DNA of 64,000 nt from Candidatus Magasanikbacteria bacterium GW2011_GWC2_37_14 (GTDB taxonomy: Bacteria; Patescibacteriota; Patescibacteriia; Magasanikbacterales; UBA922), in assembly GCA_000990355.1 (NCBI GenBank), contig LBSX01000005.1, positions 4,584-68,583 on the forward strand, given 5' to 3'. The stretch's first letter is position 1; each line of letters starts with the position of its first letter. The position numbers and the translations under genes are program-made. A model generated the notes under the pieces. It worked only from the letters and a program-made list of their open reading frames with translations. It searched no databases and was not told where the DNA came from. Shown here piece by piece: positions 12,551-60,882 of the stretch.

Positions 12551-12637
12551 GGAGGCGTGGCTGAGTGGTCGAAAGCACCGCATTCGAAACGCGGCAGACC
12601 TTTACCGGTCTCAGGGGTTCAAATCCTCTCGCCTCCG
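12551..12637 (+). tRNA. tRNA-Ser (anticodon CGA), class II with long variable arm
   Basis: acceptor GGAGGCG/CGCCTCC, anticodon loop TTCGAAA, long variable arm CAGACCTTTACCGGTCTCAGG, T-loop TTCAAAT. Confidence 0.75.
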
Positions 12638-12640
12638 CAT

Positions 12641-12690
12641 GGGTTCCCCGAGATAAACTCGGGGTCCCGGGTTAATCCCGGGATAAATCC
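12641..12690. repeat. GC-rich hairpin modules CCCCGAGATAAACTCGGGG and CCCGGGTTAATCCCGGG
   Basis: first module nearly identical to CCCCGAGTATACGGGG in the 57627-57790 array. Confidence 0.5.
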
Positions 12691-16644: not shown

Positions 16645-17847
16645 ATGAATAAAACAGGCATTGTTTTAAAACCAGGTCGTGATAAAGCCATAAAAAATAA
16701 ACATCATTGGATTTTTTCCGGAGCAGTTTCATATATTTCCGAATTTAGTAATGGTGAAATTTTGCCAGTTTATAATTCTACTGGAGAATTACTAGGCCAT
16801 GCTTATTGCAACAAGAATACTTCTATTTTGGGAAGAATGATTAGTTTTGGCAATACTGATCCAGTCAAAGAATTAGAAAAAAATTTGGAAAGCGCGATTG
16901 CGATGCGTAAAAGTTTGTTTAATGAAAAAATAACTAATTGTTATCGTCTGGTTAATTCCGAGGGTGACAATATTCCGGGTTTAATTATAGATAAATATGC
17001 TGGTGTTTTGGTAATTCAAAGTGCGACAGCGGGTATTGATTTATTAAAACCACAAATTGTAGAATTTTTAGTAAAAAAATTAAAACCCGTGGCAATTTAT
17101 GAAAAATCCGATTTATCATCTCGCCGTGAAGAAGGTTTGACTATGAGCGAAGGTTTGGTATATGGTAAAGAAGTAAAGAATGTAGAAGTAATTGAAAATG
17201 GTTTAAAGTTTGTAGTGGATTTGGTGAATAGCCAAAAAACTGGTTTTTTTCTTGATCAGCGGGAAATGCGGGTTTGGGCAGGCGAATTAGCCAAAAACAA
17301 ATCTGTGCTTAATTGTTTTGCCTATACTGGAGGTTTTTCTTTGTATGCCGTTCAAGGCGGGGCTAAACAGGTAGACACAGTAGATATTTCTAGTGAAGCA
17401 ATACAGAGAGCCGAGGAAAATTTTAAATTAAATGGTTTTCTCCCGCCTCCCCCTACCCCCTCCTCGGGCATGAGGGGGCAATTTGGATTTATTACGGCTG
17501 ACATTTTTGAATTTTTACGAGCTGAAAAATTAAATTATGATTTAATTATTTTGGATCCGCCAGCTTTTGCTAAAAAGAAAACCGATGTTATCAAAGCTTG
17601 TCGAGGCTACAAAGATATTAATCGCTTGGCACTACAAAAAATGCCAGCTGGTAGTATTTTAATCACTTCTTCTTGTTCTTATCATGTAGACGAAAAACTC
17701 TTCCAAACTGTAGTTTTTCAAGCTGCGGTAGAAGCAAACAGAAAGGTCCGGATAATTGGTCGTCATCATTTAGCACCCGACCACCCAATAAATATCTTTC
17801 ATCCCGAGGGGGAATATTTAAAAAGTTTGGTTTTGTACATAGAGTAA
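16645..17847 (+). CDS. rlmI: 23S rRNA (cytosine-C5)-methyltransferase RlmI-like (PUA + SAM MTase)
   Basis: LNCFAYTGGFS motif I, ILDPPAFAKKK motif IV; in-frame insertion at 17441-17478. Confidence 0.8.
   Translation: MNKTGIVLKPGRDKAIKNKHHWIFSGAVSYISEFSNGEILPVYNSTGELLGHAYCNKNTSILGRMISFGNTDPVKELEKNLESAIAMRKSLFNEKITNCYRLVNSEGDNIPGLIIDKYAGVLVIQSATAGIDLLKPQIVEFLVKKLKPVAIYEKSDLSSRREEGLTMSEGLVYGKEVKNVEVIENGLKFVVDLVNSQKTGFFLDQREMRVWAGELAKNKSVLNCFAYTGGFSLYAVQGGAKQVDTVDISSEAIQRAEENFKLNGFLPPPPTPSSGMRGQFGFITADIFEFLRAEKLNYDLIILDPPAFAKKKTDVIKACRGYKDINRLALQKMPAGSILITSSCSYHVDEKLFQTVVFQAAVEANRKVRIIGRHHLAPDHPINIFHPEGEYLKSLVLYIE
17441..17478 (+). repeat. GC-rich palindromic mini-element inserted in frame (encodes LPPPPTPSSGMRGQ)
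   Basis: TCCCGCCTCCCCCTACCCCCTCCTCGGGCATGAGGGGG. Confidence 0.7.
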
Positions 17848-19787: not shown

Positions 19788-19815
19788 AACCCCGGGATGA
19801 ACCCGGGGTTTCTTG
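19788..19815 (+). terminator. rho-independent terminator
   Basis: AACCCCGGG-ATGA-ACCCGGGGTTTCTT. Confidence 0.55.
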
Positions 19816-19865: not shown

Positions 19866-20807
19866 ATGGCTATTTTAGTTTCGGGTTCTTTGGCTTATGA
19901 TTATATAATGGATTTTCCCGATAGTTTTAAAAATCATATTTTGCCAAATCAGTTGCATATTTTGAATGTTTGTTTTGTGGTAGATAATTTACAGCGTAAT
20001 TTTGGTGGTACCGCGGGTAATATTGCTTATACCATGAATTTACTTAGTGCTGAGCCTTTAATTTTTGCGCCACTTGGTGAAGATGGTAAAGATTATTTAA
20101 ATTATTTTAAAAAACTTAATTTAAAAACTGATTATATTTTTTTGAGTCAAGAAAAACTTACAGCTTCGGCACATATTACTACGGACAAAGATAATAACCA
20201 AATAACGGCTTTTTATAATGGGGCGTTGATTGAAGGAGAAAAAATAGCAGTGAAAGATTTAAAAGATGACGTGGCTTTTGCTTTAATTTCCCCTACACAA
20301 AAAGAAGTAATGATTAAACATGCCAAAGAATGTTATGAATTGCAAATACCATTTTGTTTTGATCCTGGTCAACAAGTAACTGCTTTTTCGGCTCAAGAAT
20401 TAATGATGGTTATTGGTCAAGCAAAGTTTTTGATTGGCAATGATTATGAATTAAAATTGATTGAAGAAAAAACTGGTTGGGGAGTGTTTGAACTTTTAAA
20501 ACATGTAGAAGTAGTAATTATTACTTTGGGTGAAAAAGGTTCTTTGATAGTTAACAAAGATGGGGCAATAGAAGTGGGTGTTTGTCCTGCAATTTCGGTA
20601 GATGACCCAACCGGAGCTGGGGATGCTTATCGGGCAGGGTTTTTTTCTGCTTTTGTTAAAGGAAAAGATTTAAAAACTTGTGGGCAAGTGGGCGCCGTGG
20701 CTGCAACTTATGCAGTAGAAAATTATGGTACACAAAATCATTGCTTTACTTTGGCAGAGTTTAAAAATCGCTATGAAAAAGCTTTTGTTGAAAATTTAAC
20801 TTGGTAA
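19866..20807 (+). CDS. PfkB-family carbohydrate/nucleoside kinase
   Basis: GGTAGNIAY and DPTGAGDAYRAGF ribokinase-family motifs; start set at MAILVSG. Confidence 0.7.
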   Translation: MAILVSGSLAYDYIMDFPDSFKNHILPNQLHILNVCFVVDNLQRNFGGTAGNIAYTMNLLSAEPLIFAPLGEDGKDYLNYFKKLNLKTDYIFLSQEKLTASAHITTDKDNNQITAFYNGALIEGEKIAVKDLKDDVAFALISPTQKEVMIKHAKECYELQIPFCFDPGQQVTAFSAQELMMVIGQAKFLIGNDYELKLIEEKTGWGVFELLKHVEVVIITLGEKGSLIVNKDGAIEVGVCPAISVDDPTGAGDAYRAGFFSAFVKGKDLKTCGQVGAVAATYAVENYGTQNHCFTLAEFKNRYEKAFVENLTW

Positions 20808-20852
20808 CTGTCATTGCGAGCCCCGTCCGAGCGGGGCGAAGCAATCCCAAGG
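20808..20852. repeat. hairpin repeat GTCATTGCGAG-[CCCCGTCCGAGCGGGG]-CGAAGCAATCCCAAGG
   Basis: second copy with different inner hairpin at 60834-60882; both abut a stop codon. Confidence 0.65.
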
Positions 20853-22316: not shown

Positions 22317-23075
22317 ATGCCCATAATGCGCTTGCAAAAATTTATTGCGGACCAAGGAATTTGTTCTCGGCGAAAGGCCGAAGAACTTATTTTGGCTAAA
22401 AAAGTAAAAGTAAATGGAGTAGTAGCCGAAATTGGTTTAAAAATTGACAGTGAGAAAGATAAGGTGGAAGTGGTAAATTTCAATTCTCCCACCACCCCGG
22501 CTTTCAGCCACCCCTCCTCCGGCAGGAGGGGACACGTGTACATTGCCTTGAACAAACCAGTGGGTTTTATTTGTTCGGCAAGTAATGAACAGGGTAAAAC
22601 TGTTTTGGAACTTCTAACAAAAGAAAATTATTTTGGTAAAGAAAAATTAGAAATTAAAGATCGGGTTTATCCCGTTGGCAGGCTAGACAAAGATTCAGAA
22701 GGTTTAGTATTGCTTACGAATGATGGTGAACTTACCAATAAATTAATTCATCCACGTTATCAACATGAAAAAGAATACGAAGTAGGGTTAAACAAACCAT
22801 TGGGAAAACCTGAGGTAAAGATTTTAGAAAATAGTATGGAAATTGGCCCTGGAGAACGTGTTTGGGGAATAAAAATAAAAGATCTTGTTTGCAAAAATGA
22901 TCAAACTATAGCTACAGTGATTTTGCACGAGGGCAAGAATCGTCAAATTAGACGGATGTTTGGTAAATTGGGCTATAAAGTGATGTTTTTACGTCGGGTG
23001 CGTATTGGTAAATTAAAATTAGGCACTTTGCCTTTGGGTAAATGGAAAATGATTGGCAAAATTCAAATAATTTAA
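22317..23075 (+). CDS. RsuA/RluB-family rRNA pseudouridine synthase (S4 domain)
   Basis: RLQKFIADQGICSRRKAEELI S4 motif, GRLDKDSEGLVLLTNDG catalytic motif; in-frame insertion 22487-22531. Confidence 0.85.
   Translation: MPIMRLQKFIADQGICSRRKAEELILAKKVKVNGVVAEIGLKIDSEKDKVEVVNFNSPTTPAFSHPSSGRRGHVYIALNKPVGFICSASNEQGKTVLELLTKENYFGKEKLEIKDRVYPVGRLDKDSEGLVLLTNDGELTNKLIHPRYQHEKEYEVGLNKPLGKPEVKILENSMEIGPGERVWGIKIKDLVCKNDQTIATVILHEGKNRQIRRMFGKLGYKVMFLRRVRIGKLKLGTLPLGKWKMIGKIQII
22487..22531 (+). repeat. GC-rich palindromic mini-element inserted in frame (encodes SPTTPAFSHPSSGRRGH)
   Basis: CCCCTCCTCCGGCAGGAGGGG palindrome core. Confidence 0.7.
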
Positions 23076-30349: not shown

Positions 30350-30377
30350 GTAGAGACGCAAAATTTTGCGTCTCTAC
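30350..30377. repeat. REP: 28-bp perfect palindrome GTAGAGACGCAAAATTTTGCGTCTCTAC (copy 1, just downstream of RAYT stop)
   Basis: perfect palindrome with 5' GTAG; 3 copies in window. Confidence 0.8.
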
Positions 30378-30389
30378 AGTGAAACGTTA

Positions 30390-30956
30390 TTATACCAACA
30401 ATCCCTCAGGATTATTTCTATCACGGTCCCACATTGAGGGATTATTGAAAATATATTGTTGAATATTGTGTAGCGAAATTTCGTCACGAATGATGTGGTC
30501 GTAAAATCGTGCTTGCCAGATGAATGAGACGTTGTTTGTTGTAGCCCATTTTGATACACCAATTTTAAATCCGCGAATAATTGATGATAAATTTTTGGAT
30601 TGTGGGCCAAATTTATTGTGGTAAAGTTTGTCGTTGTCGTGTAGAGACGCAAAATTTTGCGTCTCTACAATTGGCGGATTGTTGTTAATTATAATAATTC
30701 CATGTACATGATTTGGCATTATCACAAATTCGTCTAATGTTACAAACGGAAAATGTTTTGGTATTTCCAACCAATATTTTGTGGCCATTTTTCCAATATC
30801 ATTCAAAACAATTTCATCACCAACTATTTCACCAAAATAACAGAATTTATTTTTGGTGCAAATAGTTATAAAATAATAACCCGTTTGGCTATAGTCATAT
30901 CCAGCCAAACGGGTTGAAGGTATTAAAAATTTATTTCTAAATAAATTGTCGGTCAT
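30390..30956 (-). CDS. REP-associated tyrosine transposase (RAYT; IS200/IS605 Y1 HuH family)
   Basis: RLAGYDYSQTGYYFITICTK N-motif, HVHGII HuH motif, WQARFYDHIIRDE...YIFNNP C-terminal Tyr motif; contains REP copy in frame. Confidence 0.8.
   Translation of the reverse strand: MTDNLFRNKFLIPSTRLAGYDYSQTGYYFITICTKNKFCYFGEIVGDEIVLNDIGKMATKYWLEIPKHFPFVTLDEFVIMPNHVHGIIIINNNPPIVETQNFASLHDNDKLYHNKFGPQSKNLSSIIRGFKIGVSKWATTNNVSFIWQARFYDHIIRDEISLHNIQQYIFNNPSMWDRDRNNPEGLLV
30641..30668. repeat. REP copy 2, in frame inside RAYT CDS (encodes VETQNFASL)
   Basis: identical 28-bp palindrome. Confidence 0.8.
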
Positions 30957-35856: not shown

Positions 35857-35887
35857 AAAAAATCCTGATTAAAATCAGGATTTTTTA
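35857..35887. terminator. bidirectional terminator between convergent genes
   Basis: AAAAATCCTGATT-AAA-ATCAGGATTTTTT. Confidence 0.6.
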
Positions 35888-37101
35888 AATCTATAAATTT
35901 CTCGACCCAGATGTTGATTTGGTCGATGGTAGAGTAGAGACGCAAAATTTTGCGTCTCTACTCTAAATGGCATAATTTCAAAACCAATTTTTTTCAAATC
36001 TTTTTCCCAATTTATCGCTAACCAATCATTACCAATTTTAAATTTAGGGATAGCAATTACTATTACACCTTGTGGTTCCAGAATTTTGTAAAATTCTTGG
36101 CAAGCTTTTAAATAAAGACTTTTTAATTCAGTTAATTGTTTTTCTAATTGGTTTTTGTTTTCACGACCAGTTAAGGGTTTGCCCAGATAAGTCTCAGTAA
36201 CAATTAAAGTAACAGAATTGTTTTTTATTTTTTTAGTTAATTGAGTGGCGTCACTAATAATAAATTGGCAACCAATATTTTTAAGATTATATTTTTCTTT
36301 TAACCAAAGGAAATTTTTTTCACTGTCAACAACGGCTTTTTCCGAAATGTCAGCAGCAATTAAATTATTAAAATTCATGAGAGTGGCTTCATTTAATATT
36401 GTACCCGAGCCACAAAATGGGTCCAAGAGAATTTTGTTTTTAATCACCCCGGCGCCCTCGGCAACTCCCCCCGCCTGCCTTGACGGCATGTCGGGCAGGC
36501 CTGCCCCCTCTTGGTAAAAGGGGGATAAAGCGAGATTAATCATTATCTTGGCAAGCTTGGGCGGTAGCATGCCAGACAAGTCATCACTGTCTGGTCTTTG
36601 GTAGTCACGTTCAGCCATTTCTTCAAATGGCTGTAGAGCGGTCGTAACAAAAATTTGCTTATTGATTACTGTTAAATCCGATTTTTTCTCTACTAATTTG
36701 TTGTAAAGAATAGTAGCGGTATTTTTTGGCTCAATGTAGCGTACAGAATAACCGTTGGTTTTTAAAGCTTTTTTAAGTTCCAAAGCTAGTCTTTGATCAT
36801 TTAAAGAATATTCAATTTTACCAGTAGGGCAATTAGTTATTAAGTATTCTTGTAGGTGAGTTAACAACCCCCCTTCGCCCCCCTTTATTAAGGGGGGAAT
36901 TTCGGTAGCAATTTTTATAGTGCCACCCAGCTGTTTGATTAATTTTGCTGAATCTAGTTTTTTGTTGGTTTCAATTAATAAATATTGGTTGGAATTTTGT
37001 TTTAGGGTTTTAATATTTTTAAGTTTTAATGACGAAAAAACCGCCTGGATTTCGGCGGTGGAAATAAGAGGTTGGTGCCCTAATTGAAAAAGGAAATTCA
37101 T
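35875..37101 (-). CDS. UPF0020/THUMP-type RNA (guanine-N2) methyltransferase-like protein
   Basis: LDPFCGSGTILNEA SAM motif I; carries three in-frame repeat insertions (36447-36527, 36868-36897, REP at 35934-35961). Confidence 0.6.
   Translation of the reverse strand: MNFLFQLGHQPLISTAEIQAVFSSLKLKNIKTLKQNSNQYLLIETNKKLDSAKLIKQLGGTIKIATEIPPLIKGGEGGLLTHLQEYLITNCPTGKIEYSLNDQRLALELKKALKTNGYSVRYIEPKNTATILYNKLVEKKSDLTVINKQIFVTTALQPFEEMAERDYQRPDSDDLSGMLPPKLAKIMINLALSPFYQEGAGLPDMPSRQAGGVAEGAGVIKNKILLDPFCGSGTILNEATLMNFNNLIAADISEKAVVDSEKNFLWLKEKYNLKNIGCQFIISDATQLTKKIKNNSVTLIVTETYLGKPLTGRENKNQLEKQLTELKSLYLKACQEFYKILEPQGVIVIAIPKFKIGNDWLAINWEKDLKKIGFEIMPFRVETQNFASLLYHRPNQHLGREIYRFKKS
35934..35961. repeat. 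REP copy 3, forms in-frame 3' end of methyltransferase CDS (VETQNFASL...)
   Basis: identical 28-bp palindrome, extended palindrome TAGAGTAGAGACGC..GCGTCTCTACTCTA. Confidence 0.8.
36447..36527. repeat. GC-rich composite hairpin element, in frame in CDS (encodes ...QEGAGLPDMPSRQAGGVAEGAG...)
   Basis: about 47 bp (GGCCTGCCCGACATGCCGTCAAGGCAGGCGGGGGGAGTTGCCGAGG) shared in reverse orientation with 48451-48500. Confidence 0.7.
36868..36897. repeat. GC-rich hairpin CCCCCCTTTATTAAGGGGGG in frame in CDS (encodes IKGGEGGLL)
   Basis: perfect stem of 6-7 G:C pairs inside AT-rich coding sequence. Confidence 0.55.
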
Positions 37102-42689: not shown

Positions 42690-43013
42690 ATGGACGATCT
42701 CAAGAAATTCACCCTGGATGCTTCCACGTCGGAAGCGCTCGCGCAGTCGCTCGAGGCTCTCAACAATTTCTTGCTCGGACAGAGAGTCACCCGGCGACAC
42801 TCGGTCGCCCAGGCAGGCTGGCTCTTCAAGATCCTCTTGGAGTACAGGGACAGCCCCAGCGCCAACGGGCACCCCCAACTGGCTATTGCCCGGACACTGG
42901 AAGAAGCCCAGAAACACCGGGGGCTGGGGAAGTCGGTGGATCTCTATCTCCACCAGGCCACCCCCGCCAGCGAGGTCATGGAGTTCTACTTCGTCTGGCA
43001 CATCGTCCGCTAG
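42690..43013 (+). CDS. hypothetical 107-aa protein on a high-GC (about 60%) islet
   Basis: GC3-rich codon usage consistent with real coding in a high-GC donor; candidate TTGACA-17-TAAAAA promoter in adjacent AT-rich DNA. Confidence 0.4.
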   Translation: MDDLKKFTLDASTSEALAQSLEALNNFLLGQRVTRRHSVAQAGWLFKILLEYRDSPSANGHPQLAIARTLEEAQKHRGLGKSVDLYLHQATPASEVMEFYFVWHIVR

Positions 43014-48300: not shown

Positions 48301-48336
48301 AAAACCGTCCCGCAACCTGCGGGACGGTTTTTTTCT
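48301..48336 (+). terminator. rho-independent terminator after rpsR
   Basis: AAAACCGTCCCGC-AACC-TGCGGGACGGTTTTTTT. Confidence 0.7.
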
Positions 48337-48565
48337 CCCCCTACAAGGGGAGGATTACGAAATGTGTTTGTGTGCGCGTGAACGAGTGATTGAACGTCGT
48401 CGCTGTCCCCCTCTTTCCCAACCTGCCTGCCGGTAGGCAGGGAGGGGGTAGGCCTGCCCGACATGCCGTCAAGGCAGGCGGGGGGAGTTTGCCGAGGCTT
48501 GCACAAACTCCGGCAACTCCACCGTCCGCCCTGGGCGGGCACCTCCTCTTGGTAAGAGGAGGATT
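48336..48565. repeat. array of GC-rich hairpin modules (includes CTCCCCCTACAAGGGGAGGATTACGAA and the GGCCTGCCCGACATGCCGTCAAGGCAGGCGGGG module)
   Basis: modules shared with 36447-36527 (reverse orientation) and 57763-57790. Confidence 0.7.
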
Positions 48566-48600
48566 AAAAAACACTCCGCTAATTAGCAGAGTGTTTTATA
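48566..48600 (-). terminator. hairpin plus T-run, candidate terminator for minus-strand lipoprotein gene
   Basis: AAAACACTCCGC-TAATTA-GCAGAGTGTTTTAT. Confidence 0.35.
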
Positions 48601-48720
48601 TTAACCCTCGGTTCTCCACAACACACTTATCTAAATATAAATGTATTCTGGAGATCGGAACCGAGGGTTCAGTGCCGATCATCCTTGGGGGGTGGTCGGC
48701 CGGGAGTGGCCTGGTGGGGT

Positions 48721-49101
48721 TCAACGCCCGCAGTTGAAGAGCTTGTGACTGCAGTTGGGGGTGGGGTCGCAGACATCACCACTACCGTCCTTGTCGACGT
48801 CGGTCTGGTCCGAGTTTGGTTTCTCGGGGCAGTTGTCGCAGACGTCGCCCACACCGTCCTTGTCGAAGTCGCGTTGGTCGTGGTTGAAGGTCCGCACCAA
48901 TGGGCAGTTGTCGATGCGGTCGGGGATGTTGTCCCCATCCACGTCGGAGTTGCGTTCGGCTTCGGCGGCCGACTGCTTCTGTCCGGCCTGGTAGTCTTCC
49001 CAGGCCTTCTCTCTGTCGGACGCTGGCCCACGCATCATGAGGACACAGCCTGAGAGATTTAGCACCATCGCCCACAGGGCGATAAGGATCATGCGGTTCA
49101 T
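48721..49101 (-). CDS. lipoprotein with thrombospondin type-3 (calcium-binding) repeats, on high-GC islet
   Basis: lipobox LNLSGC, three DxDxDGxxDxxDNC TSP3 repeats; GC about 60%, GC3-rich codons. Confidence 0.6.
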
Positions 49102-49263
49102 GATTGCCTTTCAGCCCCAATGGGGCAGTGGTTAACCGCTTATTTTAGCAAAAAATTTGGCTAAATTAAGCGATTTACAACTATAAAAATATTTTATATA
49201 CTAACGGCGTATTATAGCACAAATTTGCCTTTTTGTCAAGAAGGTGTTATCCACTCCTTTAAT

Positions 49264-49292
49264 TTGACAGTTCTTTTTTTATGAGGTATACT
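49264..49292 (+). promoter_or_regulatory. sigma70 consensus promoter TTGACA-17-TATACT with about 220-nt leader before rpoB
   Basis: perfect -35, near-perfect -10. Confidence 0.6.
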
Positions 49293-49512
49293 GTTGTCAC
49301 TTTTCTCTCAGGGACACATTTGATTAGCAATTTGTCTGAACTTGAAAACCTGGGGTGTCGTACTCAAAAATACCTAATTTAAAGGGTTTTCGGGTAAGTA
49401 CCTACAGCATGTTGGAAAAAATACTTCGACAATAAATAATATTTTTGAGCTTCCTTAATAAAGGAAATTTTTTGTTATCTAAAAAATAATTTTTTAAAAT
49501 AATTTTATTTAT

Positions 49513-52500
49513 ATGCCAATTTTCAAACGTCAGCCTTTAAAAATAAAAGAACGTCAGTTCTTTACCGATAAACGCGAAGCCATACCTTTGCCAGATTTAA
49601 TTCAAATCCAAAAGGATTCTTATAACTGGTTTGTAAAAAATGGCGTGCGAGAATTGTTTGAAGAAATTTCTCCAATTACTGATTTTACTGGCCGTGATTT
49701 GGAATTGTATTTTGAAGATTATTATATTGATGAACCAAAATTTGATGAAGTAACTTGTCGTGAAAAAAATATTACCTATGAAGCGCCACTCCGGGTAAAT
49801 GCCAAATTAATTAATAAGCGCACTAGTAAGAGTGACACCCAAGAAATTTATTTGGGTGATATTCCAGTAATGACTCCTCGCGGAACTTTTGTGGTAAACG
49901 GTATTGAACGTTGTGTGGTGGCCCAGCTTATTCGTAGTGCCGGCGCTTTCTTTACTGCCGAGAATGTACGTGGTCGCCGTTATTATGGAGCAAAAATTAT
50001 TCCTAATCGTGGAGCCTGGATTGAAATTGAAACTGATTTAAATAATGTCGTTTGGATTAAAGTAGACCGCAAAAGAAAAGTAGCAGCCACATCTTTGCTT
50101 CGCGCTTTTGGTATGGGTAATGACGAAGATATTATTAAAGCTTTTAAAGATGTAAATAGTCATCCCAATGTTGATTATGTAGAAGCGACTCTAAAAAAAG
50201 ATGCCGCTAGAAATGAAGATGATGGTTTGATTGAAGTTTATCGTCGTATTCGCCCAGGTGATTTGGCTACTTCCGACAATGCCAAGAGTTTAATTCATGC
50301 CATGTTTTTTAATTTTGACCGTTATGATTTGGGACGTGTAGGTGTTTACAAATTTAATACTAAATTTGAATTGAATTTAAAAGAAGATGATTATGAAAAG
50401 AAAGAAGAAAGAGTGTTATCTTTAGAAAAAATATTATTAGTTTTAAAAGAAGTAGTGCGTTTGAATGTTACTCAAGAAGAACCAGATGATATTGATCATT
50501 TGGGAAATCGACGTTTGCGCGCGGTTGGTGAATTGGTACAAAATCGTTTTCGCGTGGGTATGGCCAGAATGGAACGTATTGTAAAAGACAGAATGAGTAC
50601 TTATGAATTGGAAAGTTTAAGTCCAAATCGTCTTATCAATGCTCGTCCGGTAATTGGTGCTGTTCATGAATTTTTTATGAGTTCCCAATTATCCCAGTTT
50701 ATGGATCAAATAAATCCTTTGTCTGAATTGGAACATAAACGTCGTGTTTCGGCCTTGGGACCCGGAGGTTTGTCCCGTGATCGTGCTGGCTTTGAAGTTC
50801 GGGACGTTCACACCACTCACTATGGTAGAATTTGCCCAATTGCTACCCCCGAAGGTCCAAATATTGGCTTGGTTGGTCATTTGGCTAGTTTTGCCAAAGT
50901 AAATAGTTTTGGCTTTTTGGAAACACCTTACCGAAAAGTGGCTCAAGAAAAAGGTAAAAAACCAAAAGTTACCAATGAAGTTGTTTATTTAAATTCTTTT
51001 CAAGAAGAAAGAATAATTACTGTAAGTGCTAATACTGTTGTTGACAAAGATGGTTATATTTTGGGCGTAAGAGTTCCAGCTCGTATTAAAGGTGAGCCAG
51101 GAGTAACTGAAGTAGAAAATATTGATTACATGGATGTGGCTTCCAATCAAATTTTAAGTATTGCTACTTCTTGTATTCCATTTTTGGAACACGATGATGC
51201 TACTCGCGCTTTGATGGGTTCAAACATGCAACGCCAAGCAGTGCCTTGTATTTGTCCCGAAGCTCCTTTGGTTGGTACTGGCATCGAAGGCAAAGCCGCC
51301 GAAAATAGTGGTCATGTGTTGCTTAGTGATTGTGATGGCGAAGCAACTTATGTAGATGGCATGCGAATAGAAATTACCAATAAAAAAGGTGAAATTAAAA
51401 AATATCGTTTAAACAAATTTGTTCGTTCCAACGCTTCTAGTTGTATAGACCAACGTCCATTGGTAAATTTGGGTGATAAAGTTAAAAAAGGTCAACCAAT
51501 TTGTGATGGCCCATCTACAGATCAAGGTGAATTGGCCTTGGGGCAGAATGTTTTGGTTGCTTATATGGTGTGGGATGGTTTTAACTACGAAGATGCGGTA
51601 ATTGTTTCCGAACGTTTGGTACAAAAAGACAAATATACTTCGGTTCATATCGAAGATTATAAAATTGATGTACGTGAAACAAAATTAGGACCAGAAGTAG
51701 TAACTGCCGACATTCCAAATGTTTCTGAAGAAAAATTAAAAAATTTGGATGCCGAAGGAATTGTGCGTATTGGTGCCGAAGTTCAATCTGGAGATATTTT
51801 GGTAGGTAAAATTACGCCAAAGGGTGAAACTGAATTATCTCCTGAAGAACGATTACTTCGCGCCATCTTTGGAGAAAAAGCCCGAGATGTACGTGATTCC
51901 TCACTTTATTTGGAACATGGTGAACATGGTAAAGTAATTGATATTAAAATTTTCTCGGCCGAAAATGGTGACAAATTACAGCCAGGCGTAATTAAACAAG
52001 TACAAATTACCGTGGCTGATTTGCGCAAAATTCAAGTGGGTGACAAAATGGCTGGCCGTCATGGAAACAAAGGTGTTATTTCCAAAGTAGTGCCAGTAGC
52101 CGATATGCCATTTTTGGAAGATGGTACCCCAGTAGATATTATTTTATCTCCTTTGGGTGTTATTTCTCGTATGAATTTGGGGCAATTGCTAGAAACCCAT
52201 TTGGGTTTGGCAGCCAATGCTTTGGGATACAAAGCCGCTACCCCTACTTTAAATGGAGTTACCGAAGAACAAATTAAAGCCGAATTAGTTAAAGCTGGTT
52301 TTCCAGCTAGTGGTCAATTACAACTTTGTGACGGCCGTACTGGTGAACCATTTGATCACAAAACTACTGTGGGTTATCCTTACATGCTCAAATTAAACCA
52401 CATGGTAGAAGACAAAATTCACCAACGTTCAATTGGTCCATACAGTTTAATTACTCAACAACCTTTGGGTGGCAAAGCCCAATTTGGTGGACAGCGTTTT

Positions 52501-52818
52501 GGAGAAATGGAAGTGTGGGCCTTAGAAGCATATGGCGCCGCCCATACTTTACAAGAAATTTTAACTATCAAATCCGATGATGTACCCGGACGTTCCAAAG
52601 CTTATGAAGCGATTATTAAGGGTGAAAAAATTACCCGGGTTAATTTACCAGAATCATTCAATGTGTTGGTTAGAGAATTGAAAGGTTTGGCACTGGATGT
52701 AGAACTTTTGTCTAGAAATCAAGATGGCACTTTTCGGGCAGTAAGCGAAGAAGAATCAATCAAGAAGCCCGAAGAAGAGAATCGTGAAAGAGTAAAGACA
52801 GAAACAGTTGAAGAATAA
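49513..52818 (+). CDS. rpoB: DNA-directed RNA polymerase subunit beta
   Basis: 1101 aa, conserved throughout. Confidence 0.98.
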   Translation: MPIFKRQPLKIKERQFFTDKREAIPLPDLIQIQKDSYNWFVKNGVRELFEEISPITDFTGRDLELYFEDYYIDEPKFDEVTCREKNITYEAPLRVNAKLINKRTSKSDTQEIYLGDIPVMTPRGTFVVNGIERCVVAQLIRSAGAFFTAENVRGRRYYGAKIIPNRGAWIEIETDLNNVVWIKVDRKRKVAATSLLRAFGMGNDEDIIKAFKDVNSHPNVDYVEATLKKDAARNEDDGLIEVYRRIRPGDLATSDNAKSLIHAMFFNFDRYDLGRVGVYKFNTKFELNLKEDDYEKKEERVLSLEKILLVLKEVVRLNVTQEEPDDIDHLGNRRLRAVGELVQNRFRVGMARMERIVKDRMSTYELESLSPNRLINARPVIGAVHEFFMSSQLSQFMDQINPLSELEHKRRVSALGPGGLSRDRAGFEVRDVHTTHYGRICPIATPEGPNIGLVGHLASFAKVNSFGFLETPYRKVAQEKGKKPKVTNEVVYLNSFQEERIITVSANTVVDKDGYILGVRVPARIKGEPGVTEVENIDYMDVASNQILSIATSCIPFLEHDDATRALMGSNMQRQAVPCICPEAPLVGTGIEGKAAENSGHVLLSDCDGEATYVDGMRIEITNKKGEIKKYRLNKFVRSNASSCIDQRPLVNLGDKVKKGQPICDGPSTDQGELALGQNVLVAYMVWDGFNYEDAVIVSERLVQKDKYTSVHIEDYKIDVRETKLGPEVVTADIPNVSEEKLKNLDAEGIVRIGAEVQSGDILVGKITPKGETELSPEERLLRAIFGEKARDVRDSSLYLEHGEHGKVIDIKIFSAENGDKLQPGVIKQVQITVADLRKIQVGDKMAGRHGNKGVISKVVPVADMPFLEDGTPVDIILSPLGVISRMNLGQLLETHLGLAANALGYKAATPTLNGVTEEQIKAELVKAGFPASGQLQLCDGRTGEPFDHKTTVGYPYMLKLNHMVEDKIHQRSIGPYSLITQQPLGGKAQFGGQRFGEMEVWALEAYGAAHTLQEILTIKSDDVPGRSKAYEAIIKGEKITRVNLPESFNVLVRELKGLALDVELLSRNQDGTFRAVSEEESIKKPEEENRERVKTETVEE

Positions 52819-52856
52819 TTTAATACTTTAATTATCAATTATTATTCTATAAATTT

Positions 52857-55800
52857 ATGACACGTGATTCTCTACATTCAATGGAATTTGATGCCTTGCG
52901 TTTAAGAGTAGCTTCTCCCGAAGTTATTCGCGCTTGGTCTTATGGCGAAGTAAATAAGCCGGAAACTATTAACTATCGTACGCAAAAACCAGAAAAAGGT
53001 GGTTTGTTTGCCGAAGAAATTTTTGGACCGACCAAAGATTGGGAATGTTACTGTGGAAAGTACAAAAAAATTCGTTATAAAGGAATTATCTGCGATAAGT
53101 GTGGAGTAGAAGTTACTCATTCGTTGGTTCGTCGTCAAAGAATGGGACACATTGAACTTTGCACTGCTGTTTCGCATATTTGGTTTTTACGTTCCATTCC
53201 TTCTAAAGTCGGTTTAATTTTAGATCTATCTATTCAGTCTTTGGAAAAAGTAATTTATTTTGCTTCTTTTATTATCACCAAAGTACACGAAGATGCCAAA
53301 AAAGAAACACACGAATTATTAAAGCAAGAATATAAGTCCAAGAAAAAACAAATTTTAAAAGAAACAGAAACAGAAATTGCCCAAGCCAATGAACAGAAAA
53401 AAGGCCATGCTGTTTTGGAAGAAATTGCCAAAGAACGAGATCGTAAATTACAATCTTTGGAAGATGATTTTTCTCAAGCAGAAACTGATTTACATGATTT
53501 GCAAATTTTAAAAATTATTTCGGAAAATCGTTATCAAGAATTAGCTTTACGTTTTGGTCATTTGTTTGATGCGGAAATTGGGGCCGAGGCTGTACGTCGT
53601 TTACTCGAAAGATTAAATTTGGCTGAAACAATCAAAAATTTAGAAGCAGAAACTTTAAAAACCAAAGGAGCCAAACGTGACCGCTTGGTGCGTCGGGTAA
53701 AACTTTTAAAGAGTTTGCATAAAAATGATATTCGTCCTGAATGGATGATCCTGACTACTATTCCAGTGGTGCCGCCAGATTTGCGTCCAATGGTAGCATT
53801 AGATGGTGGACGTTTTGCGACTTCTGATTTAAATGATTTGTATCGTCGGGTAATCAACCGTAATAATCGTTTACGTCGTTTGTTAGAACTTAATGCTCCA
53901 GAAGTAATTTGTCGTAATGAAAAAAGAATGTTGCAAGAAGCAGTTGACGCCCTAATCGACAACAATGCTCGGGCTAGTAAAACTGTAACTGCTTCTACCG
54001 GGCAAAAAAGACAATTACGTTCTTTGGCCGACATCTTAAAAGGTAAACAAGGTCGTTTCCGTCAAAACTTGCTTGGTAAACGCGTGGACTATTCTGGTCG
54101 TTCGGTAATTGTGGTTGGACCAAAATTACATATTGATCAATGTGGTATTCCTAAGCGTATGGCTTTGGAATTATTCAAACCATTTGTGATGGCCGAAATT
54201 ATTAAACGTGAATTAGCCCACAACGTGCGCAGTGCTAGTCGTTTTATCGAAACCAATGCTCCAGAAGTTTGGGATATTTTGGAAGAATTAATTGGCAAAA
54301 CTAGAGTACTGTTAAATCGTGCTCCAACTTTGCATCGTTTGGGTATTCAAGCATTCCGTCCTCATTTGGTAGAAGGAAAAGCAATTAATTTGCATCCGCT
54401 TGTTTGTCCAGCTTTTAATGCTGACTTCGACGGCGATCAAATGGCCGTACATTTGCCATTAACCGAAGAAGCCAAATGGGAAGCAGAACATTTAATGGCT
54501 GCAGAAAAAAATCTTTTAAAACCAGCTACGGGCGCTCCAGTAATTACTCCACAACAAGATATTGCTTTGGGTTGTTATTATTTAACCAAATATCGTGAAG
54601 ATGACAAAGGTGAAGTGAAAAAATATTTCTCTGGATTAAAAGAAGCTCGTTATGCTTACCAAACACGTAAAATTTCTTTGAAAGACAGAATCAAAGTTCG
54701 TTTTGATGATTTAAGTAAATTTCCCGAAGGTCAAGAATCAATTATTGAAACTTCTTTGGGTAGAATTTTCTTCAACGAAATTTTGCCAGAGCGTTTACCA
54801 TTTTATAATGAAGCGATTACCAAAAAACATTTGGCCAATATCATTCAATTATTGTTGGAATTTTATGGCCAACAAGAAACCGCCTTTGTCTTGGACAAGA
54901 TGAAAGATTTAGGTTTTAAATATGTAACCAAATCTGGTTATTCATTGGGCATGGACGATTTTGGTAGAATCCCCGAAAAAGCCGCAATTTTAGTAGAAGG
55001 TGACGCCTTGGTATTGCAAGTGCAAGATCAATACAAAGACGGTTTGCTTACAGACAGTGAACGTCATTCCAAAGTTTTGGAAATTTGGACTACGGTAAAA
55101 GATCGAGTAGTTGGACACAACAAAGAAGCTTTGGATAAAGACGGCCCAGCTTTTGCCATGATTGATTCTGGGGCTCGTGGTTCTTGGGGTCAGCTTGGCC
55201 AAACCATTGGTATGAAAGGCTTGGTAGCTTCTCCTTCTGGAGAAATTATTGAATTGCCAGTAAAAGGCAACTTTAAAGAAGGTTTTGATGTACTTGAATT
55301 CTTTATTTCTTCTCATGGTACTAGAAAAGGTTTGTCCGATACTGCTCTTCGTACTGCCAACGCTGGTTACTTAACCCGCCGTTTGGTAGATGTAGCCCAA
55401 GATGTAGTAGTTTTGGCCGAAGATTGTGGCGAAGATGAAGGTCAAATATTTACCAAAAAACAATCAGAAGAAATGGGAGAAAAATTATCCGAAAGAGTAC
55501 AAGGTAGATTTGTGTTGGCCGATGTAAAAGTTGGTAACAAAATAATTATTAAAAAAGATGAAATTGTTACCGAAGAAATTGCCAGAAAAATTAATGAAAA
55601 TAATATTGAGGAAGTGCATGTTCGCTCAGTTTCCAAATGCCGATTGCCAAAAGGTGTTTGCCAAAAATGTTATGGCTTTGACTTAGGTTATAATCGTTTG
55701 GTAGAAAAAGGTATTGCCGTAGGTACAATCGCTGCCCAATCCATTGGTGAACCGGGCACTCAGCTTACCATGCGTACCTTCCATTTGGGTGGTGTAGCCG

Positions 55801-56732
55801 GTGGTGGTGATATTACCCAAGGTTTGCCTCGTGTAGAAGAACTTTTTGAAGCTCGTCCCCCAAAACGTCAATCTGTTTTAACTGAAGTTTCGGGCACAGT
55901 AGAAATTGAAGATGCTGATGGTAAAGTAATTACCGGTCCAACTGGACGTAAAATTTTTGAAGGTCGTCGTGGACAAAAAATTATTAAAGTTCATTTTGAA
56001 GGAACCGAAGAAGCCAAATTTAAAGTTAATGCTCAAGATGATTTGCAAGTAAAAGATGGTGATAAAGTAAAAAAAGACGATGTGCTCTTGGTGCGAGGTT
56101 CTTCTGGAGAAGAAATAAAAGCTAGTTATCCTGGGACAGTAGCAATAAATGGTAAAGAATTATTACTTACTTTTGAAGGTAAACAAACCAAAGAATATAT
56201 TGTTCCATTGGGATATAAGATTTGGGTGAAAAATGGCGATCAAATTCAAAAAGGCGATCAAATTACCGAAGGCGCGGTGAATTTGCAAGAATTATATGAA
56301 TTAAGAGGTAAACCAGCGGTAGAAAGATATGTGCTTAGTGAAATCAAAGCAATTTATGCTTCGCAAGGTCAGCGTTTAAATGATAAACACGTAGAAATTA
56401 TTATTAAACAAATGTTTTCTCGTGTGTATGTAGAAGATCCAGGCGATACCGAATTATTGCCAGGAGAAACTGTAGAAAAAGCTCAAGTAATGGTGGCCAA
56501 CGAACAAATGCGCAAAGAAGGTAAAAAAGAAGCCAGTGGTCGTGAATTATTCTTGGGTGTTTCCAAAGTTTCACTTTCTACCCAAAGCTTTTTATCTTCG
56601 GCTTCGTTCCAAGAAACTGCTCGCGTACTTATTAATGCCGCAATTACTGGTAAAGTAGATTATTTAAATGGTCTAAAAGAAAATGTAATTATCGGCCGAC
56701 TTATTCCTGCTGGTACTGGGTATAAGGAGTAA
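52857..56732 (+). CDS. rpoC: DNA-directed RNA polymerase subunit beta'
   Basis: 1291 aa, NADFDGD active site, zinc-binding CxxC. Confidence 0.98.
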   Translation: MTRDSLHSMEFDALRLRVASPEVIRAWSYGEVNKPETINYRTQKPEKGGLFAEEIFGPTKDWECYCGKYKKIRYKGIICDKCGVEVTHSLVRRQRMGHIELCTAVSHIWFLRSIPSKVGLILDLSIQSLEKVIYFASFIITKVHEDAKKETHELLKQEYKSKKKQILKETETEIAQANEQKKGHAVLEEIAKERDRKLQSLEDDFSQAETDLHDLQILKIISENRYQELALRFGHLFDAEIGAEAVRRLLERLNLAETIKNLEAETLKTKGAKRDRLVRRVKLLKSLHKNDIRPEWMILTTIPVVPPDLRPMVALDGGRFATSDLNDLYRRVINRNNRLRRLLELNAPEVICRNEKRMLQEAVDALIDNNARASKTVTASTGQKRQLRSLADILKGKQGRFRQNLLGKRVDYSGRSVIVVGPKLHIDQCGIPKRMALELFKPFVMAEIIKRELAHNVRSASRFIETNAPEVWDILEELIGKTRVLLNRAPTLHRLGIQAFRPHLVEGKAINLHPLVCPAFNADFDGDQMAVHLPLTEEAKWEAEHLMAAEKNLLKPATGAPVITPQQDIALGCYYLTKYREDDKGEVKKYFSGLKEARYAYQTRKISLKDRIKVRFDDLSKFPEGQESIIETSLGRIFFNEILPERLPFYNEAITKKHLANIIQLLLEFYGQQETAFVLDKMKDLGFKYVTKSGYSLGMDDFGRIPEKAAILVEGDALVLQVQDQYKDGLLTDSERHSKVLEIWTTVKDRVVGHNKEALDKDGPAFAMIDSGARGSWGQLGQTIGMKGLVASPSGEIIELPVKGNFKEGFDVLEFFISSHGTRKGLSDTALRTANAGYLTRRLVDVAQDVVVLAEDCGEDEGQIFTKKQSEEMGEKLSERVQGRFVLADVKVGNKIIIKKDEIVTEEIARKINENNIEEVHVRSVSKCRLPKGVCQKCYGFDLGYNRLVEKGIAVGTIAAQSIGEPGTQLTMRTFHLGGVAGGGDITQGLPRVEELFEARPPKRQSVLTEVSGTVEIEDADGKVITGPTGRKIFEGRRGQKIIKVHFEGTEEAKFKVNAQDDLQVKDGDKVKKDDVLLVRGSSGEEIKASYPGTVAINGKELLLTFEGKQTKEYIVPLGYKIWVKNGDQIQKGDQITEGAVNLQELYELRGKPAVERYVLSEIKAIYASQGQRLNDKHVEIIIKQMFSRVYVEDPGDTELLPGETVEKAQVMVANEQMRKEGKKEASGRELFLGVSKVSLSTQSFLSSASFQETARVLINAAITGKVDYLNGLKENVIIGRLIPAGTGYKE

Positions 56733-56744
56733 AACTGTTAAAAT

Positions 56745-56781
56745 AAAATCGTCCCAAATTAGTTGGGACGATTTTTTTATT
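56745..56781 (+). terminator. rho-independent terminator after rpoC
   Basis: AAAATCGTCCCAA-ATTA-GTTGGGACGATTTTTTTATT. Confidence 0.7.
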
Positions 56782-56883
56782 ATACTCACGTACTAGCGTA
56801 CTAGTACAGTAGTGCGTTTGTTAAGACAAAATACTTTTGGGAAGGGGGGACACAGAACTGCGTCCCCAGAGGAGGGAAGTGAA

Positions 56884-57525
56884 CTACCGGAAGAGTACGC
56901 ACCGCGGGGGCACGATCAGGCTGGCGGGGTTGACACCGTCCCAGCTGATCAGTCCCTGGAGCACCATGTTTGTCATGTGCGACTGCCACGCCCGTTCGAC
57001 TTCGTTGACGCGCTTGGCCAAGGAGTCGGGGGTGTCGTCATCGCGGATCAAGACCGGGTAGTGGAAGAAGACCGGTCCTCGGTCGAATTCTTCGGTGACG
57101 AAGTGCATGCAGACCGCGCTGGCGGTCAGCTCGCCTTGGTGGAAGGTGGCCATCACGGCTTCGTGCACGTGGTGGCCGTACATGCCCGGACCGCCGTACT
57201 TGTACAACGGACCGGGGTGGATGTTGATGGTCTTCTTGGGGTCGAGACCCCTGACCAACTTCAGCCAGCCGGACAGCGCGACGAGGTCGGGCTGGAAGGC
57301 GTCGACGAGAAGCTGATATTGGTCTACCGACCAGGGTGCGGGCATGTGAACGAATTTGACGCCCAATTTTTCGGCGCGTCGTTCTACACCACCACCTCGC
57401 ACGTTGGAAACTACGGCCACGATGTCCGCCTGGAGAACTCCGGTGCGGGAATTCTCCACGAGTTCTTGGAAGCCAGAGCCTCCACCCTCCCTGGAACCCG
57501 AAGCGAATACGAGAATCCTTTTCAT
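56884..57525 (-). CDS. PurN-like formyltransferase (stand-alone formyl_trans_N domain, 213 aa) on high-GC islet
   Basis: MKRILVFASGS N-terminus, NIHPGPLYKYGG and HFVTEEFDRGPV motifs of GAR formyltransferase family; GC about 60%; start set at MKRIL (track ORF starts upstream). Confidence 0.7.
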   Translation of the reverse strand: MKRILVFASGSREGGGSGFQELVENSRTGVLQADIVAVVSNVRGGGVERRAEKLGVKFVHMPAPWSVDQYQLLVDAFQPDLVALSGWLKLVRGLDPKKTINIHPGPLYKYGGPGMYGHHVHEAVMATFHQGELTASAVCMHFVTEEFDRGPVFFHYPVLIRDDDTPDSLAKRVNEVERAWQSHMTNMVLQGLISWDGVNPASLIVPPRCVLFR

Positions 57526-57626
57526 GTCTGAGCCTTTCTGGTTGTTGTTCACCACTCCCAAAAATATTTTGTAAATAACTAAACTATTGGTTAGCTTAGC
57601 GCTAAATATGGGAATTGTCAATGGTA

Positions 57627-57790
57627 TTCCCCCTTAGAAAAGGGGGAATAAGGGGGTTGTTGGTAAACCCTCCCCTTGTAGGGGAGGTACCCCGAGTATA
57701 CGGGGTGGTGGGGTTCGTAGTTCTAACATGAACCCCCACCCTCCGACTGCGACGTCGGAGGACTCCCCCTACGAGGGGGAGGATTACGAA
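57627..57790. repeat. array of six consecutive GC-rich hairpins (TTCCCCCTTAGAAAAGGGGGAA, CCCTCCCCTTGTAGGGGAGG, CCCCGAGTATACGGGG, GGTGGGGGTTCG..GAACCCCCACC, CTCCGACTGCGACGTCGGAG, CTCCCCCTACGAGGGGGAGGATTACGAA)
   Basis: last module nearly identical to 48336-48362; CCCCGAG..CGGGG module matches 12646-12664. Confidence 0.7.
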
Positions 57791-60833: not shown

Positions 60834-60882
60834 TGTCATTGCGAGGAAGTGCCGATGAGGCACTGACGAAGCAATCCCAAGG
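60834..60882. repeat. hairpin repeat GTCATTGCGAG-[GAAGTGCCGATGAGGCACTGAC]-GAAGCAATCCCAAGG (copy 2)
   Basis: shares both flanks with 20808-20852; starts 1 nt after gap stop codon. Confidence 0.65.

Follow-up and report, generated by a model that had tools for sequence, protein, structure and literature searches.

Bacterial repeats of the intrastrand-triplex kind (BoxC, PIT and TM elements) have been known for decades. The Escherichia coli repeat called BoxC, then PIT element and then TM_ECO has the consensus CCCTCNCCC-N3-6-GGGNGAGGG-N3-GGGNGAGGG (PMC4666352, 2015); an earlier account of the class is that of Hoyne and Maher (2000), as cited there. TM_ECO forms a stable triplex in vitro and has thousands of copies in proteobacteria, often paired in inverted configuration, with similar G/C-rich motifs abundant in cyanobacteria. 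It is described as 'always intergenic' in E. coli K-12, it has no promoter or terminator activity, and its loci vary more among strains than control spacers do (PMC4666352). Here we describe repeats that appear to share this design in a stretch of 64,000 nt (36% GC), hereafter the window, from contig LBSX01000005.1 of Candidatus Magasanikbacteria bacterium GW2011_GWC2_37_14, a member of the candidate phyla radiation (CPR). An initial annotation of the sequence had drawn attention to two arrays of GC-rich hairpins that share modules with distant loci: array A, with its core at 48407-48562, and array B, with its core at 57669-57781 preceded by a single unit, B1.

We consider it probable that these arrays are clusters of a dispersed, non-coding repeat family that acts at the DNA level, is of the intrastrand-triplex type and is native to this lineage. 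The sequences show that the elements are multi-copy and structurally constrained as DNA, that orthologous sites may be filled or empty, and that the elements can nest in one another and are tolerated in frame. A literature search found no publication describing such triplex-type repeats in CPR bacteria.

Shared modules and the architecture of the units

Three of the four modules singled out initially are real repeats. Module M1, CTCCCCCTAC(A/G)AGGGG(G)AGGATTACGAA, lies at 48335-48361, one base from the position first given, and again at 57763-57790; the two copies are identical at 26 of 28 positions, with one indel. Taken alone this pair is weak (E 0.03). The metagenome contig L067, which was found with the M1 pattern, has 56 nt in common with 48335-48389 at 93% identity (E 3e-14), and M1 is therefore solid as a repeat. 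The second module (48442-48489) matches the reverse complement of 36463-36510 at 47 of 48 positions (E 5e-19), the match continuing into GCCGAGG with one indel, and the copy near 36 kb does lie within a coding sequence (CDS; 35875-37101, minus strand), as had been claimed. The AGAGG-like pair also held: CCCCCTCTTGGTAAAAGGGGG (36504-36524) and CCTCCTCTTGGTAAGAGGAGG (48542-48562) have CTCTTGGTAA and their architecture in common, and relatives of this family were found in other CPR genomes. We do not accept the remaining module, since CCCCGAGATAAACTCGGGG (12646-12664) and ACCCCGAGTATACGGGGT (57689-57706) differ in their stems and share only the heptamer CCCCGAG, of which about 1.4 copies are expected by chance in the window (an estimate from base composition).

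The description of the arrays as perfect hairpins above 70% GC is right for the stems; the entire arrays reach only 58-68% GC. That modular arrays are common to distant loci proved correct, and the sharing reaches further than was first seen. The window contains 66 segments of 40 nt with a minimum free energy of -18 kcal/mol or lower, against 5-7 in shuffles of local composition (about tenfold), and array A folds with a z-score of -6.4, array B with one of -7.3; the programs model Watson-Crick pairs only. Since independent assemblies carry the window sequence at 99.98-100% identity, neither the arrays nor the high-GC genes beside them are assembly artefacts. Three of six short-read contig ends of the same organism fall inside repeats (12277, 30377 and 48471), as expected for multi-copy sequence.

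What Watson-Crick folding does not capture is a third domain. Read on the G-rich strand, each module consists of a C-rich arm, a loop, a purine arm, a short linker and a G-rich mirror run, in which G faces G, and T or A faces A, of the purine arm. The basic unit is 30-35 nt long with stems of 7-10 nt; linkers are of 1-6 nt, and the longer ones (12-31 nt) are themselves compact hairpins. BoxC/PIT/TM_ECO of E. coli have the same design, which is that of a purine-motif intrastrand triplex of class II. Set against the definition of class II intrastrand triplex-forming (ITxF) sequences, the window units have the pyrimidine arm, purine arm and reverse-Hoogsteen arm in that order on one strand, and the triads C-G-G with T-A-T or T-A-A, the third domain mirroring the purine arm; short loops within the size limits (stems 6-15, loops 1-6 nt) are found in five of the ten.

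Ten perfect units occur in the window and none in 60 shuffles that keep composition within blocks of 20, 40 or 100 nt; CPR loci hold another 37 in 113 kb. The mirror rule was assessed on all perfect hairpins with a stem of at least 7 and an all-purine arm in the window and 21 CPR loci (199,592 bp): 43 of these 47 hairpins have a perfect mirror run no more than 30 nt 3' of the purine arm. Counted as perfect strand-sites, there are 44 downstream mirror matches, as opposed to 6 direct downstream, 2 mirror upstream and 1 direct upstream. Nineteen distinct purine arms are represented and the mirror run covaries with the arm, as in AGAGGGGG with GGGGGAGT or GGGGGAGA, AGGAGGGG with GGGGTGGT, AAGAGGGAG with GAGGGAGTT, AAGAGGGGG with GGGGGAGTT, AAGAGGAGG with GGTGGAGTT and AGGGGGAG with GTGGGGGT; when the letters of an arm are permuted, a perfect match is found in just 2/126 to 6/21 of the permutations. 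The coexistence of several covarying families thus offers a natural covariation test of the third-strand domain. For the leader that precedes one family of units, F1 (see below), G-quadruplex and pyrimidine-motif (C-strand) readings had been considered before the mirror rule was tested. T rather than A predominates opposite A:T pairs on the G-rich strand, which fits the purine motif but not the pyrimidine one.

The modules noted initially are pieces of one architecture, since M1, the copy in the CDS and the arrays are all parts of the same unit plan (Table 1). In its complete form this plan is a composite of two inverted units flanking a central hairpin; one arm of that hairpin is the top-strand mirror run of the left unit, and the other is the bottom-strand mirror run of the right unit. 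Both window arrays and six other loci (L014, L024, L044, L066, L037 and L047) have inverted pairs with a central hairpin between them. Several CPR loci have a three-hairpin composite of Ha (CTCCCTCTT-acc-AAGAGGGAG), Hb (GAGGGAGTT-GCCGA-GGTG-TCGGC-TCCCACTCCCCC) and Hc, the last being the F1 hairpin. Hb supplies both mirror runs: its 5' arm is that of Ha (top strand), and the complement of its 3' arm is that of Hc (bottom strand). With its outer arms the composite has the ends ATCTCCCTCT / AGAGGGGGAT.

Array A follows this plan: its left unit is succeeded by the central hairpin, and this by a linker hairpin and the right unit. The loop of left unit A1 holds a nested hairpin, CCTGCC..GGCAGG (48422-48441), and its linker is a further hairpin, X (AGGCCTGCC..GGCAGGC, 48450-48479); right unit A2 includes the CCTCTTGGTAAGAGG module of the initial annotation. 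The core of array B has the same plan in different sequences. Unit B1 can equivalently be read with arm AAGGGGG, linker AATAA and mirror GGGGGTT. The first M1 copy is an orphan, a right end whose mirror partner is missing on that side, and the second, unit B4, is followed on the plus strand by the tail GATTACGAA (57782-57790). The heptamer GATTACG recurs after the terminal G-run of units (GGGGGAGGATTACGAA, GGGGGATTACGTTG, GGGGATTACGCGG), in the window at 57782-57790 and 48353-48361, in L067, in L066 after F1, and in L039, and may be an end or junction signal.

The G-rich, triplex-capable strand is the minus strand in seven of the ten window units, GC skew is positive across the entire window, and for the four F1 copies, all in plus-strand genes, the C-rich strand is the coding strand. 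This bias may reflect selection for orientation; other loci have both orientations.

Table 1. Repeat units, composites and associated genes and hairpins of the window (strand of a unit is that of its G-rich strand where so marked; a point stands for no strand)
Feature	Position	Strand	Composition or remarks
M1 copy a	48335-48389	+	hairpin CTCCCCCT-aca-AGGGGAG + GATTACGAA + 28-nt extension
Unit A1	48407-48487	+	pyrimidine (Y) arm CCCCCTC (48407-48413); purine arm GAGGGGG (48442-48448); mirror GGGGGAG (48481-48487)
Central hairpin, array A	48481-48523	.	GGGGGAGTT...AACTCCACC; 5' arm is mirror partner of A1, complement of 3' arm is mirror partner of A2
Unit A2	48516-48562	-	CCTCCTCT-tacca-AGAGGAGG, linker hairpin (48524-48541), GGTGGAGT
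Unit B1	57627-57658	+	TTCCCCCTT-agaa-AAGGGGGAA-t-AAGGGGGTT
Unit B2	57669-57714	+	CCTCCCCT-tgt-AGGGGAGG, linker hairpin ACCCCGAGTATACGGGGT, then GGTGGGGT
Central hairpin, array B	57707-57740	.	GGTGGGGTTC...GAACCCCCACC
Unit B4 (M1 copy b)	57732-57790	-	CTCCCCCT-cgt-AGGGGGAG, linker hairpin CCTCCGAC..GTCGGAGG, GTGGGGGT
F1 unit in PHP-like CDS	8077-8117	- (G-rich)	CCCCCTCT-gcccg-AGAGGGGG-ta-GGGGGAGT; covariance model 58 bits
F1 unit in RluD-like CDS	10413-10455	-	translated SHSPHTPSRAEGK; E. coli RluD gapped exactly there
F1 variant in RlmI-like CDS	17437-17479	-	translated PPPPTPSSGMRGQ; E. coli RlmI (YccW) gapped there
F1 variant in RsuA/RluB-like CDS	22485-22541	-	extra GGCT..AGCC linker hairpin; arm AGGAGGGG, mirror GGGGTGGT
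Composite in Trm11-like methyltransferase CDS	36445-36527	-	hairpin CCCCCTTTTACCAAGAGGGGG, linker hairpin X, GGGGGAGTT, central-hairpin remnant
Triplex-type unit in methyltransferase CDS	36866-36897	-	CCCCCCTT-aata-AAGGGGGG-cgaa-GGGGGGTT; translated PPLIKGGEGG
Divergent RAYT-like Y1 transposase	30390-30956	-	NCBIfam NF047646 E 9e-15; Pfam Y1_Tnp E 0.0025
GTAG-tagged perfect palindrome GTAGAGACGCAAAATTTTGCGTCTCTAC	30350-30377	.	13 nt after RAYT stop
TSP3-repeat (thrombospondin-type-3) lipoprotein gene	48721-49101	-	GC3 0.80; adjoins array A
PurN-like formyltransferase gene	56884-57525	-	GC3 0.78; adjoins array B
Two adjacent hairpins after tRNA-Ser	12646-12683	+	CCCCGAG..CTCGGGG and TCCCGGG..CCCGGGA; not triplex-type

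Copies inside genes and in other genomes

Scans of the window for GC content and for hairpins brought up further elements inside genes. In all, copies of the module families stand in frame at six sites in five genes: five perfect units and one composite element. The composite lies in the gene for a Trm11-like methyltransferase, a protein 100% identical to one of Candidatus Magasanikbacteria bacterium GW2011_GWC2; it reads in frame SPFYQEGAGLPDMPSRQAGGVAEGAGVIK and corresponds to a left unit, X and the start of a central hairpin, which explains its 48-nt identity with array A. The resulting 27-residue insert is absent from all 25 aligned homologues (about 50% identity), and an AlphaFold model of the protein (predicted local distance difference test, pLDDT, 86.8; predicted template modelling score, pTM, 0.88) has a single segment with pLDDT below 50, and this segment, residues 196-218, is the insert. 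In several homologues the same loops contain different inserts derived from hairpins, and these loops appear to be either repeatedly hit or repeatedly tolerant. The inserts of other Magasanikbacteria homologues include VETQNFASL, NVETHLGASQ, NVETRHCLVS, SPLEGGKGGV and MDSPPCQGGIKGG.

The other four genes each carry an F1 unit, in frame as ..P-T-P-S-R/S-A/G-E/R-G.. in every case and confirmed by a covariance model; that in the PHP-like gene is translated PTPPTPSRAEGD on the plus strand. The RluD-like gene lies near a tRNA-Ile (anticodon TAT) at 9789-9861, with tRNA-Arg(CCG) directly after; its true start is probably the Met at 9997, since the mechanical open reading frame (ORF) begins inside a tRNA. 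A GC-rich hairpin, AACCCCGGG-atgaa-CCCGGGGTT (19788-19810), spans the start codon (19797) of a PfkB-family gene.

These copies inside genes bear on an alternative in which the arrays act as RNA, for instance by terminating transcription, by stabilising 3' ends or as a structured non-coding RNA. Array A does lie between convergent genes and array B downstream of the gene for an acetyltransferase, each of them folds as a series of stable hairpins, and the L067 array comes after a promoter-like TATTATAGCAC box. We nevertheless find this alternative very improbable, because the same modules stand within coding regions in both orientations and the conserved mirror G/T run has no role in an RNA hairpin. 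Nor is there an Rfam match: Rfam 15 returned tRNAs only in the window, and only tRNAs and one cut-off small-subunit (SSU) rRNA end in 15 further loci. A reading of the hairpins as intrinsic terminators was rejected, as no T-tails come after them. Purine-motif triplexes are moreover reported not to form in RNA, and PIT elements to lack terminator or promoter activity in E. coli (PMC4666352).

How widely, then, are the elements dispersed? The 20-mer of the F1 hairpin occurs at 64 loci among the species-representative genomes of GTDB. The copies share the leader CTCCC(A/T)CTCCCCC, except for three in high-GC genomes (L004, L042 and L053), which have neither leader nor mirror run, and in many of them a further hairpin, GGCC..GGCC, separates the leader from the F1 hairpin. 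One group of hosts comprises Magasanikiibacteriota and other Patescibacteria; records titled 'uncultured Gammaproteobacteria' have flanks 65-80% identical in DNA to Patescibacteria loci and were counted as CPR. The other comprises metagenome-assembled genomes (MAGs) of rumen Prevotella/Bacteroidales, in which a near-identical unit of about 55 nt is intergenic and multi-copy, within GGAGTTAAAGG tandem units and flanked by ordinary Bacteroidota metabolism genes on contigs of up to 295 kb. In L018, L055 and other Prevotella loci F1 lies within tandem 11-nt GGAGTTAAAGG(G/A) repeats with a recurring 'GGGACATATGTTCACTTTT' end; these arrays are species-specific and intergenic, and each MAG has at least 14-17 copies. 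Viral contigs, scanned with the F1 and X hairpins, gave no match.

In the CPR loci F1 is mostly inside long ORFs, in both orientations and always in one frame each, ..PSRAEG.. or SPSAREG... Selection may lie behind this bias, since no frames other than these two are free of Leu and Cys. Orthologues differ in their state of occupation. The MnmA genes of L032 and L039 are filled after GKI(I/L)LS, and that of L059 is empty at this site and filled at another where L039 has none; the TrmD genes of L041 and L047 (80% DNA identity) have one insertion in common. Such filled and empty sites amount to dated insertion events, from which the movement of the elements can be studied. A peptide search with element translations against a word-indexed database returned three proteins (LepA, a DUS-like protein and one other), each with the composite, and the 31-residue window insert gave three weak matches among 1.84 billion representatives.

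The arrays, too, have relatives. L067 contains the whole of array B, as 165 nt that match 57629-57790 at 91% identity; next come M1 and the 28 nt that stand behind it in array A. The flanks are unrelated, and the remainder of this 12.5-kb contig has no match to the window. Its linker hairpin ACCCCGAGTATACGGGGT is swapped for GTCCCGATTCGCATCGGGAC with the three domains of B2 kept, and its copy of B1 (about 4500-4528) has a degenerate purine arm. Perfect units of the B1 module stand at 9008-9037 and 4711-4738 of the same contig. The arrays thus appear, from their sequences, to move as units. Palindromes of the AGATCCTGAAATAAATTCAGGATGACAG type form a separate family after genes (window 4308-4335, 9211-9238 and about 9240-9270; L067 about 11010-11070), and another element, GTCATTGCGAGC..hairpin..GAAGCAATCCCAAGG, is at 20807-20852, with the 16-mer CGAAGCAATCCCAAGG again at 60867-60882.

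If the arrays are clusters of a native triplex-type repeat family, copies would arise by a trans-acting or replication-linked process on folded single-stranded DNA and would persist only where they do no harm. One such place would be the few intergenic spacers, where copies could accumulate, nest in each other's loops and so form arrays such as A and B; the other would be surface loops of proteins that tolerate the stop-free, Leu- and Cys-free frames. The modules would on this account be native to the lineage rather than brought in with high-GC genes, and might destabilise the spacers in which they lie.

Several points weigh against this explanation. Triplex folding is deduced from sequence symmetry alone, and five of the ten window units have a linker or loop of 12-31 nt, above the sizes in the motif definition, though these are themselves hairpins. 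Even for TM_ECO, which forms a triplex in vitro, the structure was not seen by footprinting with dimethyl sulphate (DMS) in vivo (PMC4666352). The filled and empty MnmA sites show no target-site duplication, and no mobilising enzyme linked to the triplex modules was identified. As to breadth, the 64 loci were retrieved by one exact 20-mer and are uninformative on variation of that hairpin, the peptide searches with inserts yielded few further proteins and are of little use for judging it, and the source genome was not among the loci returned by the scan of GTDB representatives; the unit density given below is that of the window.

Transposase and high-GC neighbours

A candidate hairpin-DNA enzyme of this genome, as judged from its sequence, is a divergent protein resembling the REP-associated tyrosine transposases (RAYT), named after the repetitive extragenic palindromic (REP) sequences. 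It has the HUH motifs 'HVH' and 'WQARFYDHIIRD' and scores 54.8 bits against NF047646, below the curated cut-off of 80; no Pfam hit is on record for the gene. The GTAG-tagged palindrome that follows its stop codon, at whose end (30377) the short-read contig L071 terminates, has further copies inside the RAYT-like CDS (30641-30668) and inside the methyltransferase CDS (35934-35961), both translated VETQNFASL. A homologous RAYT (phmmer E 1e-35), together with arrays of GTAGAGACGGCGATTCTTCCCGTCTC REPs (GTAGAGACG-type) on both sides of it, lies at 2790-4150 of L016, from the Prevotellaceae MAG RUG13201. The same REP stem is thus found in two phyla, in the window and in L016, and both genomes also carry F1.

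Could this transposase have mobilised the modules, as elements akin to REPs and to bacterial interspersed mosaic elements (BIMEs)? The gene is present, the tagged palindrome both flanks and interrupts it, the Prevotellaceae MAG that has a homologue with its REP arrays carries many F1 units, and the mosaic clustering of the modules is like that of BIMEs. We think it unlikely all the same. The cognate repeat is evidently the GTAGAGACG palindrome; the RAYT-like ORF is flanked by the GTAG palindrome and not by triplex modules, and its family match is below the cut-off. The triplex modules have no constant tag of the REP kind (GTAG or CGTC at the 5' foot of the palindrome), the tag being found only on a different palindrome, GTAGAGACGC..GCGTCTCTAC. 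No locus has them fused to REPs and, unlike REPs, they lie within genes. We conclude that the REP/RAYT system is distinct from the triplex modules.

A second gene associated with hairpins is a stand-alone GIY-YIG gene for 80 residues (12303-12545), between a double hairpin (12233-12287, in which a short-read contig ends at 12277) and tRNA-Ser(CGA) (12551-12638), itself followed by the hairpins at 12646-12683. As a mobilising nuclease it was rejected, there being only one more homologue in about 70 loci and no association.

Why do both arrays stand beside genes of foreign composition? Three short islet genes have a GC content at third codon positions (GC3) of 0.78-0.82, against 0.23-0.31 in native genes and about 0.25 in the genome: the lipoprotein and PurN-like genes of Table 1 and a third at 42690-43013. 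The adjacency that had been reported is real, with 159 nt from the end of array A to the 3' end of the lipoprotein gene and with array B beginning about 100 nt upstream of the PurN-like gene. Between array A and the 3' end of the lipoprotein gene, some 40 AT-rich nucleotides are bracketed by a perfect inverted repeat of 13 bp, AACCCTCGGTTC(C)...GGAACCGAGGGTT (48603-48669); upstream of that gene is a perfect sigma-70 consensus promoter (49211-49239, minus strand; TTGACA, 17 nt, TG-extended TATAAT). Public annotation has the PurN-like gene on the wrong strand, as a 239-residue ORF without a Pfam hit. An integron-cassette (attC) reading of the islets was discarded: there is one GTTAGGC near 42675, but no paired core site and no integrase.

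The initial annotation had proposed that the arrays were imported together with these genes, from what would be a high-GC donor. That they adjoin the islets and have raised GC speaks for this; we nonetheless find it hardly credible. Members of the module families lie in native housekeeping genes of low GC3 and, in other CPR genomes, in AT-rich contexts, and array B recurs in L067 with unrelated flanks and no PurN-like gene. It is on these grounds that we reject co-import. The window unit scan found no triplex unit inside the high-GC genes themselves. The nearest homologues of the PurN-like protein, of at most 69% identity, are on Patescibacteria and DPANN contigs; the two nearest contigs examined have about 40% GC, and unit scans of the homologue contigs L072 and L074 found no arrays. 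The F1 20-mers of high-GC genomes, as noted above, lack leader and mirror run.

Its other proposal, that the arrays are instability or recombination hotspots which caused the capture of foreign high-GC genes, is compatible with a native triplex-type repeat family, and we keep it alive because the islets adjoin arrays and TM_ECO loci are reported to be unstable, being more rearranged than control spacers in E. coli (PMC4666352). Two of the three window islets adjoin arrays, and a high-GC islet in L067 is preceded by a hairpin-repeat array. These are four islets in all, a tiny sample, and the one at 42690-43013 has no triplex-type unit alongside. Arrays stand on one side of the islets only, and most units, such as the copies in CDSs and L067 4365-4528, have no islet nearby. 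In a compact genome both kinds of insert may merely share the few permissive spacers, which explains the adjacency equally well. We therefore treat capture at the arrays as possible, if on the unlikely side. More far-reaching still is the picture of an active, structure-specific mobile DNA that crosses phyla (CPR and rumen Prevotella), rewrites enzyme surface loops in frame and makes hotspots for the uptake of foreign genes, possibly moved by a hairpin-DNA enzyme like the RAYT-like protein common to both; this we regard as doubtful. The elements do make it testable whether such repeats are linked to the uptake of foreign genes by minimal genomes, and they are a concrete source of protein-length variation and of assembly breaks in CPR genomes.

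Comparison with known systems

The GC clusters of yeast mitochondrial genomes offer an analogy only. They too are small, palindromic and GC-rich elements dispersed through a very AT-rich genome, they form nested clusters in spacers, and now and then one stands in frame within a gene; they differ in belonging to a eukaryotic organelle, and we know of no triplex-type third domain in them. Closer in their relation to genes are the Rickettsia palindromic elements (RPE), reportedly described by Ogata et al. in 2000. RPE are short palindromic repeats that stand in frame in unrelated housekeeping genes; surface regions of the proteins tolerate the peptides, and a site filled in one orthologue may be empty in another. 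The window likewise has in-frame insertions in unrelated protein genes that are absent from orthologues. RPE differ in being about 100-150 bp long, not GC-rich and triplex-type, and from another phylum; the units here measure 31-90 nt.

With REPs and BIMEs the triplex modules share small palindromes in mosaic intergenic clusters and a RAYT-like gene in the window. They differ from them in having no GTAG or CGTC tag and in their third, mirror domain, and the copies inside CDSs depart from the extragenic placement of REPs. Compared with miniature inverted-repeat transposable elements (MITEs), the outer arms do give terminal ends, but no duplication is visible at the MnmA sites.

The nearest likeness is to BoxC/PIT/TM_ECO. 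Both have a pyrimidine arm, loop, purine arm, short loop and reverse-Hoogsteen G-rich arm, the triads C-G-G and T-A-T/T-A-A, stems of 7-10 nt and frequent inverted pairs; both are highly conserved in sequence across distant genomes, have no associated transposon and are tied to variable loci. The TM_ECO consensus has no match in the window or in 74 loci, and we are therefore dealing with different sequence families of the same structural class. Here several covarying families coexist, linkers often contain an extra hairpin, and the host is an AT-rich CPR bacterium. A class formerly described as strictly intergenic is found in frame within essential genes, with five of the ten perfect window units so placed, and its density in the window is about 150 per Mb, roughly 30 times that of TM_ECO in E. 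coli K-12 (about 5 per Mb). With its covarying families, hairpin linkers, inverted-pair composites, in-frame insertions and near-identical unit in Prevotella, the repeat family of the window appears to be a CPR version of the BoxC-type class.

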